DNA of 42,873 bases from a virus. Lineage: Duplodnaviria; Heunggongvirae; Uroviricota; Caudoviricetes. Under the pieces are notes generated by a model. That model saw only the letters and a program-made list of their open reading frames with translations, did not search any database and was not told the DNA's origin. The DNA lies in IMG/VR virus record IMGVR_UViG_2897369580_000001, one strand, 5' to 3'. The translations under genes were made by a program, and so were the position numbers. This document shows, piece after piece, positions 1 to 19,295 of this stretch; within the stretch, counting starts at the first letter, position 1, and each line of letters starts with the position of its first letter.

Positions 1-321
1 TTACTCCAGAGACAGCCGAACCGAAAAACCGTTTTCAGCGAGCGTCAGACTCAGTGTGTTGATAGTCCAGTCCCGGTCCTCCTCGGTCCCGAAACCTTGA
101 GTTGTGACTTTGCATTCTGCTGTCAGCGACACTAAATCGAGCGTCGCTGGCGTCGTGTACGTCATAGAGAACTCTTTTTTAGCTGCACCGCCCTTGAGCC
201 CTGGTGCAGCTTCTTTCGCTGCGTCGAGCGACGGCTCAACTGCCGGCCATTCAATGACAGGATCGCCGCCACTACCTTGTCCGCAATTCTTTGATCTGCC
301 CAGTTGCTGTGTCGTGATATT
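1..321 (-). other. C-terminal segment of P2 gpD-like late control/tail protein, read in a different frame from the N-terminal ORF
   Basis: Own translation of minus strand ending at stop (tta at 1-3) gives ...EEDRDWTINTLSLTLAENGFSVRLSLE*, resembling the gpD C-terminus; frame differs from ORF 272..1045; junction lies in Gly/Ser-repeat coding DNA. Confidence 0.5.
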
Positions 322-1045
322 TAATCAGATACGTCGGTTCCGGATTTTCGCCACCGCTACCACTATCGCCACTTTGTCCATTTCTCGAATAGCCCCAGCT
401 GGAGTTATCACGACGAGTTAGCGTGTAGTGCTGGAGCGGAGCACCGCTAACAGATTCGCCCGCGCCGCGCGGCAGGAATATCCAGTACCCGCCCGCGGGT
501 TTACTCACCGCATCGAATCTCGTTGCGAGCCGCGACATCAGGTGCATATCTGACTCGCCGACCTGATCGAGTTGCGTGATAACATTGTCTGCAAACCGCT
601 TTGATACGCGTGGTTTTAGCCCATTATCGCTCGCTATTGTCGCAACGATATCGCTGACAGTGACGTCGCTCCAGGAACGAGTCTTTTTGCTCTGAACTGT
701 CGGAGATCCTTTTGCTGCGTTCATCGGAGCCGCTTTTGCTGTGAAATCAACTACCCGGGGTTCACCGCCACTGCTAGCACCGTCAACGATGTATATCCCT
801 TTATCAATTATCTGATTACCGAAACCGAGCCCAATACTGATTTTTACTCCGCGGGCCGGAATTTTCAGAGTTTCAGAAACTATTGCTACGCGGAGTTCGT
901 CTGTCTGTTTACTGGAGCCGCCGTAATCTGTCAGCGTGATATTGATCAAACCTTTTCTTATTTTATCCGTGATGTTTTTATTATCAGCAGATATATAAAA
1001 ATTAGGTTTCCACGCCTCCACGCCAGTATTTACGTAATCACTCAT
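272..1045 (-). CDS. Phage late control gene D protein (tail protein gpD-like), N-terminal portion; apparently frameshifted
   Basis: 257-aa ORF; last gene of a P2-order tail cluster (U-X-D); followed out of frame by a gpD-like C-terminus. Confidence 0.7.
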   Translation of the reverse strand: MSDYVNTGVEAWKPNFYISADNKNITDKIRKGLINITLTDYGGSSKQTDELRVAIVSETLKIPARGVKISIGLGFGNQIIDKGIYIVDGASSGGEPRVVDFTAKAAPMNAAKGSPTVQSKKTRSWSDVTVSDIVATIASDNGLKPRVSKRFADNVITQLDQVGESDMHLMSRLATRFDAVSKPAGGYWIFLPRGAGESVSGAPLQHYTLTRRDNSSWGYSRNGQSGDSGSGGENPEPTYLIKYHDTATGQIKELRTR

Positions 1046-1048
1046 TCA

Positions 1049-1273
1049 TCAATCCCATAATTGCGTTTCTTTTTTAACCGGCTCTGGTTCGATATCTGGT
1101 AAAACAATTTTTTCTCCAGCACGAAACACGGCACACATATCCGTTACGCCGTAATTCGAAACCTGATATAAAACAGTCTCTGTCGTTTTTGACGCTCTCC
1201 CGTAGACCGCAAGGCAGATCTGATCGAGACGGTCACCGTCCCGTGTAGTGTATGTAATCATTTGGGGCCCCAT
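1049..1273 (-). CDS. Phage tail protein X (gpX-like)
   Basis: 74 aa; motif LDQICLAVYGR...TETVLYQ...LPDIEP like P2 gpX; position between U and D. Confidence 0.7.
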   Translation of the reverse strand: MGPQMITYTTRDGDRLDQICLAVYGRASKTTETVLYQVSNYGVTDMCAVFRAGEKIVLPDIEPEPVKKETQLWD

Positions 1274-16650: not shown

Positions 16651-16880
16651 AATCGAACTCCCACGGGCCGACGGCGTCCCGTACTCAGACCGAGCTGTGA
16701 TTTCAGCTCGATAATGTACGTTCGGAGCTGCTCAATACTCGCCTGCGAGTATTGATAGCTCCGGTTATTTCCTGCTGAATCGCCGTGAGACAGCGACACG
16801 GTCGATTTACCCGTTAATAATTTGTGCAGAGCGATTTCCGCTTCCAGCAGTCGTTCTGTTAAAACCTCGCGCGACGTCAT
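16647..16880 (-). CDS. Head-tail joining protein W (lambda gpW family)
   Basis: 77 aa; ...ALHKLLTGK...IIELKSQLG... like lambda gpW. Confidence 0.8.
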   Translation of the reverse strand: MTSREVLTERLLEAEIALHKLLTGKSTVSLSHGDSAGNNRSYQYSQASIEQLRTYIIELKSQLGLSTGRRRPVGVRL

Positions 16881-18841
16881 TAGCTCCCTCCGAGCATTCT
16901 GGCCATCTCCTCGAGAGACAGTTTGTTTTGTGATTTTTTCCGTTGCTCAGCGAGCGTCTCGAGATTGAGCTGGAAACGAATTTTACTGATACGCAGCGCT
17001 GCCAGTCCGTACACCCAGCAGTCGAGCGCCTCATTTCGCCGGCCCTGGTTGTCCCAACGATAAACGACGCGACCGTTAATGAGTTTCGGGATCAGAACCT
17101 CGGAGACGAGCTGTTTTGCCTCTGTCGTGCTGAATATTTCGTCGTCGTTGGGAAAATGAATCGCACCTGGTGTCGCCGATTTGGAGTCGGGTTCCAGCTG
17201 CAGGCGCATTGCGAGCAGGTCTTTCGCTGTATCTGTCCCAATCAACGACAAATACACTTTATTCGCGTTACGGGTACGAGGCATATTTACGACCGGCTGG
17301 CCGTATGAGCTCGCGCCCTTGATTGGAATGACCCACAGCGGACCGAGTTTCAGCGAGCGGTTATAAACGACCTGCGCATCTATACCACCGGTATCCCACG
17401 CCCAGCGACTGACGCCGATTGTGGTCCCGTCGCTGCGCCGGTATTGTTTGCGAATCACTCCGTCGACGCGCTGCAGCGTGTCCTCCTCGTCGTAGCGACC
17501 GAGGACGATTGTTTTATCAATCAGCCAGCACTCCTCCTCGGCTCCCCAGCCCCACACATAACACTCGTAGCGCCCGGACGTCTGAGAGTCGATGCCGCCG
17601 GTTATATAAACAACACCGTCAGGAACCTGGCTGGCGTATTTTTCCCGGCGATTAACCAGAATATCGTGCTCCAGCTGCTCGCTGGCCACGTCGCTCCAGA
17701 GTTCGCCGAGCGTCGTGTTATGAAACGTCTTTTCCTTGAGCGGGTCGCCTTTCGCTTTCAGCCACTCGCTGACAATCTCGCCCCATCCATCGAGGTTTAG
17801 TGAATACAGGGCGTTTATCACGATCGCAGCGTGTTTCGGCGCGCGAACGACGCCACCGTCATGATCAAAAAAATGAATGCCGTCTCGGGTCCAGGTGCAG
17901 TCCTCGGCTATCCAGCGCCCCCCGAACTCCATTTTTTCGAGATCGCGATAGTAAAAATGTTCCGGGCAGTGGCAGCACTGGTAATACGCGGACGACGATT
18001 TCGCCTCATTGGTCTGCAGGCTGTTATCCCATTTGAGGCCGTATTCGATACCGTCGAAACCAAATACCAGGACCTGCTCCTCGCCACAATGCGGACATGT
18101 CAGGTAAAAACGAAACGTCAGATCGGCAGCGTCTTCGAGCATTTCGATATGACTTTTGCCGGTAACGGTCGGCGTCGAACCAAAAATCGCCTTCGGGTAC
18201 GCTGCCCCTTTAATTCGAACGAGCGCCAGTTCGATGGGCGAGCCCTCGCCTTTGCCTTTTTTGGCAACTTCCAGCGGCCAGCCGTCAACTTCGTCACCCT
18301 CGACAACCTGTTTCGTTAGTCGCCGGAAATTTCCTGGTGCACTCGCGCCGCGAAAATCAAGAATCGCGCCGCTCATTTCTTTACGCTGGAGATTGTTACG
18401 CTCGTTGCTTTTATCCCAGTCGGGGAAAATTTTCTGAATCACTGGCATTTCGGCGATAGCGGGGTCAACCTCGTCGGCGACAAATCCATCCGATTCGTCA
18501 TCGATAGGCTGATAGACCACGGCACTACGTTTTTTGTGCTCAGCGAAATAGAGCAGCGCCGCGACGAGTATTTTTGTATAACCGAGACGAGCTGATTTGC
18601 GAACAGACACGATTTTTATCGCGTCGTTCGTCATCATATTGAGCATCACTACCTGGACCGGCTGAGTCGTCCAGTGCCCAGCGATGTGGCTGGAGCCCTC
18701 AGGGAGATAAAAATATTTATCAGCCCACTCAACACCCGTCATCGGTATCGTCACGCGCAAGGGATTCAACCCTGTCGAGATCGCGTTCGATATCGCTGAC
18801 ATCGTAATCGCTGAAGTCGATTCGTATGTCTGACAACTCAT
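16880..18841 (-). CDS. Terminase large subunit (lambda gpA family)
   Basis: 653 aa; N-terminal ...GVEWADKYFYLPEGSS...KSARLGYTKIL... like lambda gpA. Confidence 0.95.
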   Translation of the reverse strand: MSCQTYESTSAITMSAISNAISTGLNPLRVTIPMTGVEWADKYFYLPEGSSHIAGHWTTQPVQVVMLNMMTNDAIKIVSVRKSARLGYTKILVAALLYFAEHKKRSAVVYQPIDDESDGFVADEVDPAIAEMPVIQKIFPDWDKSNERNNLQRKEMSGAILDFRGASAPGNFRRLTKQVVEGDEVDGWPLEVAKKGKGEGSPIELALVRIKGAAYPKAIFGSTPTVTGKSHIEMLEDAADLTFRFYLTCPHCGEEQVLVFGFDGIEYGLKWDNSLQTNEAKSSSAYYQCCHCPEHFYYRDLEKMEFGGRWIAEDCTWTRDGIHFFDHDGGVVRAPKHAAIVINALYSLNLDGWGEIVSEWLKAKGDPLKEKTFHNTTLGELWSDVASEQLEHDILVNRREKYASQVPDGVVYITGGIDSQTSGRYECYVWGWGAEEECWLIDKTIVLGRYDEEDTLQRVDGVIRKQYRRSDGTTIGVSRWAWDTGGIDAQVVYNRSLKLGPLWVIPIKGASSYGQPVVNMPRTRNANKVYLSLIGTDTAKDLLAMRLQLEPDSKSATPGAIHFPNDDEIFSTTEAKQLVSEVLIPKLINGRVVYRWDNQGRRNEALDCWVYGLAALRISKIRFQLNLETLAEQRKKSQNKLSLEEMARMLGGS

Positions 18842-19295
18842 TTAAGGCTATCGCCAGCTCCTCTCGTAATACACTGCTCGCCTCTTGCGGCATCTCCGGC
18901 CAGACCTTTTTCAGGCGTGGTGGCCACGACTCGACGCGGGTACGTAATTCAACGGCGACGCGAGATACAGCGACGCTAATTAATTCAATTGGCGCGTAGC
19001 GTTTAGCGAGAATGCGGCGTTTTACTCGTGCCATCAGGATTCGCTCCTGTCGTTCCTCATTTTTCAGCCACTGCTCGCGATTTTTTTCGGGAGAATTGTC
19101 CCCCGCTTCCGGTTCGTCATTACTAGTTGTGTCGCGTCTATTGCTCCGGAGATAACGAATATAAAAATGGCGCCATGCGTCTAGCTCCCAATCACCACGT
19201 CCTTGTGGGACTGGTGCTCCCGGAAGTTTTGCGAGATCGCGCAGACGACGATCAGATAGCAGTAAATGTGCTGCAACCTCAGCCTGACTTGCCAT
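18729..19295 (-). CDS. Terminase small subunit (putative)
   Basis: 188 aa; immediately upstream of and overlapping TerL; charged, DNA-binding-like N-terminus; no close similarity to lambda Nu1. Confidence 0.55.
   Translation of the reverse strand: MASQAEVAAHLLLSDRRLRDLAKLPGAPVPQGRGDWELDAWRHFYIRYLRSNRRDTTSNDEPEAGDNSPEKNREQWLKNEERQERILMARVKRRILAKRYAPIELISVAVSRVAVELRTRVESWPPRLKKVWPEMPQEASSVLREELAIALNELSDIRIDFSDYDVSDIERDLDRVESLARDDTDDGC

Follow-up and report, generated by a model that had tools for sequence, protein, structure and literature searches.

What kind of virion is encoded in the first 19 kb of the virus record IMGVR_UViG_2897369580_000001 (Caudoviricetes), and could the prophage that carries these genes still build it? 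An earlier note on the window, that is, the whole stretch of 42,873 nucleotides analysed here, had read positions 1-19295 as a mosaic in which a lambda-like head and packaging module is joined to a P2-like contractile tail. The comparisons described below indicate that positions 1-19404, on the minus strand, are very probably the late, virion-building operon of a lambdoid temperate prophage, which combines a lambda-type head with a contractile tail of the pyocin/P2 type and in which the gene for the baseplate hub, D, is broken. Reference proteins for BLASTP were those of lambda (NC_001416) and P2 (NC_001895), Pfam was used at its gathering thresholds, and PHROG profiles and profile matches to PDB chains were added.

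All long open reading frames (ORFs) of positions 1-19295 lie on the minus strand, so that the module reads from 19295 to 1, and all of its features given below have this orientation. Neighbouring genes touch or share a few bases throughout, including across the head-tail join (10804-10807 and 11893-11896), and no tRNA genes are found among them. From 19295 to 11516 the module carries the small terminase TerS, gpA, gpW, portal B, protease C, decoration protein D, capsid E, FI and FII, and from 10305 to 1 it carries V, W, J, I, H, sheath, tube, E, T, U, X and hub D.

The lambda-type head and packaging set (gpA, W, portal, S49/Nu3, gpD, gpE, FI and FII) is complete and stands in lambda's order. 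Eight of these proteins fall into Pfam families, and seven of the eight are 32-64% identical to their lambda counterparts, FII being recognized by profile only; the long colinear similarity to lambda that had been claimed for this block is thus borne out. The large terminase of the gpA family (16880..18841; PF05876, GpA_ATPase, and PF20454, GpA_nuclease) is 43% identical to lambda A over 645 amino acids (aa; E=3e-170), and its start is placed at 18742 by both GenBank and RefSeq. Next come the gpW head-tail adaptor, Ad1 (16647..16880; PF02831, E=6e-16; 35% identity to lambda W), the portal of the gpB family (15076..16650; PF05136, E=8e-91; 64% to lambda B), and a head protease/scaffold of the gpC/Nu3 type (13769..15076; S49 peptidase, PF01343; 56% to lambda C), the C-terminal part of which is 50% identical to lambda Nu3. 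The decoration protein of the gpD family (13440..13769; 40% to lambda D) scores 30.7 bits with PF02924, for which the cut-off is 29.1, and the major capsid protein of the gpE family (12347..13381; PF03864; 56% to lambda E) has lambda gpE (7VI9, E=1e-127) as its top PDB match. The DNA-packaging chaperone FI (11893..12312; PF14000; phrog_92) is 32% identical to lambda FI over 81 aa.

At the upstream end of the block, the small terminase TerS (18729..19295, 188 aa) matches phrog_57, "terminase small subunit", over residues 1-185 (E=3e-39) and is 56% identical to TerS of the Vibrio phage Vb_VaM_Valp1 (OR500391; hereafter Valp1). It gave no Pfam match, even at E<=10, and no significant BLASTP similarity to lambda Nu1. 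The RefSeq/PGAP call for this gene is 102 aa only (18729-19034) and is labelled "hypothetical", while the proteins of relatives measure 188-225 aa. None of the P2 head proteins Q, P, O, N, M and L was matched by BLASTP among the window proteins. The family Peduoviridae is defined by six orthologs, namely the large and small terminases, the gpQ portal, the gpO scaffold, the gpN capsid protein and the gpL capsid completion protein (bioRxiv 10.64898/2026.09.14.750843), and with P2 P, M, Q, O, N and L all unmatched the prophage falls outside it.

The tail block holds the set of families typical of P2 and R-type pyocins (sheath, tube, gpV, gpW/gp25, gpJ, gpI, gpU, gpX, gpD and a chaperone of the gpE type), with identities to P2 of 30-41% where BLASTP detected similarity. 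Among the window proteins, no BLASTP match was found to the non-contractile tail proteins of lambda (U, V, G/T, H, M, L, K, I and J). A siphovirus virion was rejected on these two grounds, the presence of sheath and baseplate families and the lack of matches to the lambda tail. Protein by protein, the tail lies outside lambda's siphovirus families and the head within the lambda B/C/D/E families, as had been proposed.

The spike of the P2 gpV family (9388..10305; PF04717; 35% to P2 V; PDB 3QR8, "Baseplate assembly protein V", E=2e-17) precedes three further baseplate genes, which encode the wedge proteins of the gpW/gp25 family (9044..9433; PF04965; 36% to P2 W) and of the gpJ family (8127..9047; PF04865; 41% to P2 J; PDB "Tri1a PA0618", E=8e-60) and the gpI-family baseplate protein (7498..8124; PF09684, E=3e-37; 34% to P2 I). 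The tail fibre H (6321..7505) joins a P2 gpH-like N-terminal attachment domain (PF12571, residues 4-139) to an unrelated distal part; its 32% identity to P2 H is confined to the N-terminal ~115 aa, and it is the most variable gene among close relatives (81-89% identity). The ORF that follows (5932..6321, 129 aa) lies where a fibre chaperone or another fibre protein would be expected and matches phrog_1795, "tail fiber protein" (E=2e-23). It had been called G, an assignment that has to be dropped: it showed no similarity to P2 G and no Pfam match (E<=10), and it is variable or absent among relatives.

The tail sheath (4433..5935, 500 aa; PF04984 and PF17482) is 36% identical to P2 FI over 356 aa and matches the pyocin sheath PA0622 in the PDB (E=6e-49). 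It is ~100 aa longer than P2 FI (500 vs 396 aa), with an insertion of ~115 residues between the parts aligned to P2 1-41 and 40-393, and this insertion is common to the relatives (488-513 aa). The tail tube (3903..4415; PF04985, E=2e-21) has weak similarity to P2 FII, 31% over 64 aa. The tail assembly chaperone E (3609..3890; PF10109) may be extended by a -1 frameshift into E', a frame that, as read from the sequence, contains no stop between 3648 and 3478 and runs into the beginning of T; a candidate slip site, GGTAAAG, lies at 3636-3642. T itself (1860..3500, 546 aa) is taken to be the tape measure by position and size only; it matches phrog_3654, a family of unknown function (E=2e-262), shows no BLASTP similarity to P2 T, and is conserved at the same position in all relatives. 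The block continues with the gpU-family tail protein (1435..1863; PF06995, E=3e-31; 35% to P2 U; PDB "Ripcord PA0626", E=1e-14) and the LysM-like baseplate protein of the gpX family (1049..1273; PF05489; 40% to P2 X; PDB "Tail protein X", 2LTF, and "Glue PA0627").

The order of the tail genes, collar, V, W, J, I, fibre, sheath, tube, E, T, U, X and D, differs from that of P2, where X is flanked by L and the lysis genes, R and S map elsewhere, upstream, and fun(Z) is found between G and FI (NC_001895). P2 R and S had no BLASTP match among the window proteins. The PDB chain names PA0615, PA0618, PA0622, PA0626 and PA0627, on the other hand, occur in the order of the window's genes. The tail order is thus pyocin/Wolbachia WO-like rather than exactly P2-like, and of the P2-type tail put forward in the earlier note the protein families stand but the order does not, owing to X, R/S and fun(Z); it is the order of the R2 pyocin and WO.

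How the two blocks are connected can be seen at the join, which had been located between about 10.3 and 11.9 kb with two proteins of unassigned family. The location holds, and the interval contains three ORFs, each of which can be assigned to a family. The first encodes the head closure/head-tail attachment protein (Hc1) of the lambda gpFII family (11516..11896; PF05354, Phage_attach, E=3e-11; phrog_82, E=1e-25), for which BLASTP against lambda FII was not significant. The second, of 226 aa (10804..11484), appears to be a divergent tail completion protein of the lambda gpZ family: it matches phrog_27, "tail completion or Neck1" (E=4e-43), and three of its 29 homologs, themselves ~38-41% identical to the window protein, match PF06763, Minor_tail_Z (best E=2e-12). 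The window protein itself had no Pfam match, even at E<=10, and Foldseek found no PDB match with E<0.5 for its AlphaFold2 (AF2) model (predicted local distance difference test score, pLDDT, 80), so that the link to gpZ comes from sequence profiles only.

The third ORF (10271..10807, 178 aa) encodes a putative tail terminator or cap, homologous by family profile to the R2-pyocin collar PA0615 and Mu gp37. A HMMER search with the family profile gathered 119 representatives of similar length, and a profile of 94 sequences matches PDB 6U5F/6U5J, "Collar PA0615", over its full length (E=3.4e-35). Four members of the family match PF08873 (Phage_Mu_Gp37) and three match PF23840 (Phage_tail_terminator); the window protein itself gave no Pfam match at E<=10. 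Compared singly with PA0615 it reaches E=0.019, with a conserved C-terminal motif, G..P..G..HE.DY..P. Profiles of the junction families compared with single lambda Z and U and P2 R and S sequences gave nothing usable, the best being a 25% probability to the N-terminus of lambda gpU. In the P2 virion, according to a cryo-electron microscopy preprint, the terminator gpR sits between the adaptor and the sheath, and PA0615 is its tailocin counterpart (bioRxiv 10.64898/2026.09.14.750843). The neck order gpW, gpFII, gpZ-like protein and terminator would then be lambda's FII-Z-U order, with a terminator of the myovirus type replacing U.

Exactly where the blocks meet depends on the yardstick, and the three boundaries, at ~10.8, ~11.5 and ~11.9 kb, all fall within the interval. 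By family, the lambda-type genes end at Z and the pyocin/P2-type genes start at the collar, at ~10.8 kb. By composition, the head block has a guanine-cytosine (GC) content of 0.54 and the tail block one of 0.47, with a step between FII (0.543) and the Z-like gene (0.482) at ~11.5 kb. By recombination, the boundary lies between FI and FII, at ~11.9 kb, as seen in locus L027 (IMGVR_UViG_2529293142_000021). The head of L027 is different, with a portal and terminase only 26% identical, a ClpP-capsid fusion and a cement protein, while its FII, Z and terminator are 63-65% identical to those of the window and its tail 63-92%. These identities suggest that FII, Z and the terminator travel with the contractile tail as a neck cassette. 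L027 itself looks degraded (2700-4777, 9310-9992 and gene D): its gpA nuclease is split over two ORFs, its gpZ-like gene is broken (132 aa), and its D product is 187 aa long.

The compositional step might be taken as the seam of a young hybrid, formed by recent recombination between a lambda-like siphovirus and a P2-like myovirus. This origin is highly improbable, since the proteins are only 32-64% identical to lambda and 30-41% to P2, P2 R and S are missing, the layout is pyocin-like, and the same arrangement recurs in phages of Vibrio, Citrobacter, Hafnia and Wolbachia; the module exchange of L027, moreover, took place within the lineage's own gene pool. The word mosaic, in the sense of a lambda x P2 hybrid, therefore does not suit this module: identities of 30-64%, together with a layout shared across those phages, point to an old, established lineage.

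That lineage can be followed beyond the window. All 22 further loci taken from IMG/VR and GTDB genomes are colinear with the window, and the gene order agrees gene by gene with Valp1 and with the published table for WORiC, the pattern of the lambda/P2 chimeric myoviruses. Three cultured phages, Valp1, Chris1 and yong2, have homologs of the terminator; Valp1 has the same order throughout, and Chris1 and yong2 have a rearranged variant with a ClpP-capsid head.

The same data bear on another reading, namely that two adjacent elements have been mistaken for one, a lambdoid remnant without tail genes and an independent R-type tailocin cluster. From 10807 to 1 the window is indeed colinear with the R2 pyocin cluster, starting at the collar. 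This arrangement can nonetheless be considered barely credible: the array runs without interruption on one strand with stop/start overlaps across the join; all relatives long enough to tell keep head, neck and tail together; a cultured phage of this order, Valp1, makes complete virions; and gpFII and gpZ would have no role in a headless tailocin. The collar homolog and the pyocin order are present, but a full head and packaging set is contiguous with them.

A single operon for a complete virion would also be expected to have a packaging site, and cos packaging had been predicted from the lambda-like head. A predicted cos region (19312..19404) lies upstream of TerS, as judged from similarity to the ends of lambda and Valp1. 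GGGTCCT, the lambda cosQ heptamer, occurs at 19397-19403, and the 13-mer CGGGTCCTTTCCG at 19392-19404 matches lambda at 13 of 13 positions, at a site that we take to be cosQ, with GGGTCCT at bp 48473-48479. A cosN-like 12-mer starting with GGG, GGGTCGGTAGAC, is found at 19364-19375, 21-22 nucleotides (nt) from cosQ (nick positions +/-2 nt); the spacing from cosQ to cosN is 23 nt in both lambda and Valp1, and the lambda 12-mer is GGGCGGCGACCT. TTTCCGGTT at 19312-19320 is shared with lambda and Valp1 and may be a TerS-binding element. In a three-way alignment with the left end of lambda, the window and the Valp1 end share 60 matches, against a mean of 38.5 for shuffled sequences (standard deviation 7.4, maximum 54).

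Support for cos in the lineage comes from the Valp1 record, in which Illumina adapter directly abuts a 12-mer, GGGGCATGACCT, that is identical at the two ends; GGGTCCT stands 23 nt upstream of it. Such an adapter-flanked terminal repeat of 12 nt is what a filled-in cohesive end of that length leaves behind. There is thus good support for cos packaging in the lineage, and for this prophage the cosQ/cosN-like region at 19364-19403 leads to the same prediction. As to the record itself, the deposited "complete genome" OR500391 starts and ends in adapter (...ACACGACGCTCTTCCGATCT / AGATCGGAAGAGCACACGTCTGAA...; positions 1-26 of our locus L007 and 1-~30 of L034), a contamination that marks the physical ends.

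Whether the prophage could still make such a particle hinges on the last gene of the operon. The baseplate hub gene D spans 1..1045 in two parts (272-1045 plus 1-165); its product is 30% identical to P2 D and matches phrog_52 (E=2e-74), and its Pfam match is below the cut-off (22-24 bits vs 30.1). Three-frame translation revealed an extra A at 277/278, which leads to a stop at 272-274. The product of the ORF 272-1045 is therefore 257 rather than 347 aa long, and the remaining ~90 codons, down to position 1, lie in another frame. The D gene of SA186 differs by one base over its length: it lacks the A at 277/278 and encodes an intact protein of 347 aa. A 95% identical copy in LCP30S3_I5 is likewise intact (347 aa), D measures 334-350 aa in six relatives, and the intact protein matches both P2 D and the pyocin R2 hub 6U5H. 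D had been listed in the earlier note among the tail genes; its homology to P2 D is confirmed, but the gene is split, and the set of essential tail genes is to this extent not intact. The window allele was found in 30 of 38 prophage-bearing rows of an evenly spaced sample of 466 matching genomes.

Because D is the baseplate hub in P2 and in the pyocin, the prophage copy is probably unable to build tails unaided. The prediction of a myovirus with a lambda-type capsid accordingly fits the lineage, as the colinear Valp1 is a myovirus by electron microscopy (EM), but this copy, with D frameshifted, probably yields no complete particle on its own. It has to be weighed against this that the other 23 structural genes are full length relative to their relatives, that hundreds of genomes carry the allele unchanged, and that GenBank names a phage, vB_EcoM. 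The prophage might then be fully functional, with a truncated D, or a D supplied by another P2-like prophage in the cell, sufficing for infectious myovirus particles on induction. This appears unlikely. The stop removes ~90 C-terminal residues that are conserved in the six relatives and in the intact allele one base away, in a protein that serves as the hub in both reference systems; a slippery sequence is not present at GGACAAGG; and the records on which the phage name rests include host DNA and are therefore not evidence of particles. Many copies in sequence type 131 (ST131) have, in addition, acquired an IS1 element in or near D, which suggests decay.

The IS1 family transposase brings an extra ~777 bp in or beside D in many ST131 genomes, for example NZ_CP135697, where the query matches in two pieces. 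Clustered regularly interspaced short palindromic repeat (CRISPR) arrays of other E. coli (EA2, NZ_CP069710; GCM39-10-2-9-3-1, NZ_CM170158) contain 100% matches of 33-34 nt to window positions 919-952 and 1254-1286, in gene D and in the region around the start of X, and the prophage lineage is thus targeted by E. coli CRISPR spacers.

The prophage is neither rare nor new. The window is 100% identical to the GenBank record ON470624, "vB_EcoM-705R4", and to three sister records, and of 5426 complete E. coli genomes 441 (~8%) carry the module (>=80% query coverage), EC958 and other O25b:H4-ST131 strains among them. In ST131-type genomes the prophage lies between yecA and the leuZ-cysT-glyW tRNA genes, at the tRNA-Leu gene leuZ in the yecA/pgsA interval, and its surroundings are lambdoid, with Q, holins and endolysin, a DnaB-type helicase, a repressor pair and an integrase at tRNA-Leu. 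A scan of genome contigs with narrow peptide patterns yielded one locus. The prophage is not discussed in the part of the EC958 genome paper that was available, and a literature phrase search for a lambda-like head with a P2-like tail returned no results. What is found here is an already deposited and common prophage, a member of the described lambda/P2 chimeric lineage of WO, XfP1/2 and Valp1. ON470624 (L001, 1-1700) is titled "complete genome"; it is 27 kb long, ends within the early region and includes yecA, a gene of the host, the presence of which makes it a partial prophage prediction rather than a complete phage genome.

Taken together, these data lead us to a tentative proposal, which we regard as possible rather than probable. 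The neck trio of gpFII, gpZ and PA0615-type proteins might be a portable, tail-inherited adaptor cassette that serves at least two head types of the lambda supercluster, the gpC/gpD/gpE head here and the ClpP-capsid-fusion head of L027, Chris1 and yong2, and the frameshift in D, found in about four-fifths of the genomes with this prophage, might mark a tail-dead prophage that has been retained across pandemic ST131.

Assembly in an intact member of the lineage might proceed as follows. The terminase would recognize a lambda-like cos upstream of TerS, made up of cosQ, cosN and then a TerS-binding element, and unit genomes with cohesive ends of ~12 nt would be packaged into a gpE/gpD capsid, the portal of which would be closed by gpW and gpFII. 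The contractile tail would be assembled separately, from a hub of D, V, X and U and wedges of W, J and I, with its length set by T and with the chaperones E/E'. It would be capped by a hexamer of the PA0615-like terminator, the gpZ-like protein assisting, and the gpFII ring would finally dock onto the terminator.

Several points weigh against the view of the module as the late operon of a chimeric virion with a broken hub. The prophage is known here from its genes alone, and the GenBank "phage" records, which include yecA, look like prophage predictions. The assignments of gpZ and the terminator draw on transitive profile evidence, the single-sequence scores being weak (no Pfam match; E=0.019), and the AF2 model of the terminator has low confidence (pLDDT 55), for which reason it was kept out of the fold search. 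The cosN 12-mer of the window differs from those of lambda and Valp1, and its nick sites are consequently predicted only. The E' extension had no Pfam match and no BLASTP similarity to P2 E+E'; since it matches no family, the frameshift is deduced from the E/E' arrangement of P2. Finally, other contractile-tail prophages in the same host might conceivably complement D.

Outside the late operon, the window carries a few features of its own. At 40016-41265, just upstream of the prophage integrase, it has a 1250-bp insertion relative to strain 4/4, an insertion sequence (IS) of the IS3 family with two minus-strand ORFs that contain HTH_Tnp_1 and rve integrase-core domains. The early region includes an island of low GC content at 26001-28000 (0.33 vs ~0.48 elsewhere). 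Its ORF at 26467-27165 (232 aa), which matches no Pfam family, is possibly a moron or a defence cargo gene; ImmA/IrrE-like and LprI-family genes lie near the island.

The value of the locus as a discovery is small, since the sequence is deposited, the prophage is common, and the combination of head and tail has been described for WO and Xylella and seen by EM in Valp1. Its practical yield is a gene-by-gene annotation, including three junction proteins that are publicly "hypothetical", and a predicted cos site. The broken hub gene of the ST131 allele, for its part, is relevant to the question of whether induction of the prophage could release transducing or infectious particles in a clinically important clone.

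Comparison with known systems places the operon between familiar ones. With lambda it shares the gpA, W, B, C/Nu3, D, E, FI, FII and Z families in lambda's order, the Q/lysis/immunity layout and an identical cosQ heptamer, but lambda's non-contractile tail genes have no match here and TerS is not detectably Nu1-like. With P2 it has homologs of V, W, J, I, the N-terminus of H, FI, FII, E, U, X and D in common, whereas the head genes of P2 and its R and S are unmatched. In P2 the tail genes are split between the V and F operons, while the window's tail is one block, with X beside U and D rather than L and with a terminator that resembles PA0615 and Mu gp37. The R2 pyocin of P. aeruginosa (PA0615-PA0628; 6U5B/6U5F/6U5H) has its collar, J, sheath, U, X and hub in the same relative order, and its tail presumably works in the same way; unlike the window, in which the tail belongs to a full virion operon, it has no head, portal, terminase, FII or gpZ.

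Other phages combine a lambdoid early region with a contractile tail. Shigella phage SfV, the comparator proposed in the earlier note, has both, and its HK97-type head and Mu-type tail make a combination different from that of the window. Telomeric myoviruses such as VP882 and PhiHAP-1 may share the layout described here. Salmonella SEN34 likewise has a lambdoid early region and a contractile tail, but its virion genes resemble those of Burkholderia Bups phi1 (PMC5261728), and it was absent from the results of the terminator search.

The closest parallels are the WO phages of Wolbachia, the Xylella prophages XfP1 and XfP2, and Valp1. Masui et al. recognized lambda-like packaging and head genes and a P2-like baseplate in WO phages (cited in Biliske et al., 2011; PMC3235987), and the table for WORiC runs C ... 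Z, hypothetical, V, hypothetical, W, J, I ... sheath, tube ... T, U, X, D (PMC3235987). WORiC and XfP1/XfP2 share with the window a lambda-like terminase, portal and minor capsid protein C, followed by a "minor tail protein Z" and the tail order (PMC3235987); they belong to distant hosts (Alphaproteobacteria and Xanthomonadales), WO carries eukaryote-associated cargo, and the likeness is one of gene order. Valp1 differs in that it is a telomeric prophage of Vibrio, a linear plasmid with a protelomerase, rather than an integrated lambdoid one, and in that it has two extra genes between V and W, including one for a PAAR protein, and an intact D. For Valp1 a contractile-tailed virion has been demonstrated by EM, a myovirus whose head measures 60 nm and whose contractile tail measures 90 nm (PMC11054321), whereas the evidence for the window prophage is genetic. 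The two nevertheless have the order from TerS to D in common, with identities of 28-59%, and Valp1 likewise has a lambda-like cosQ and a 12-nt end.

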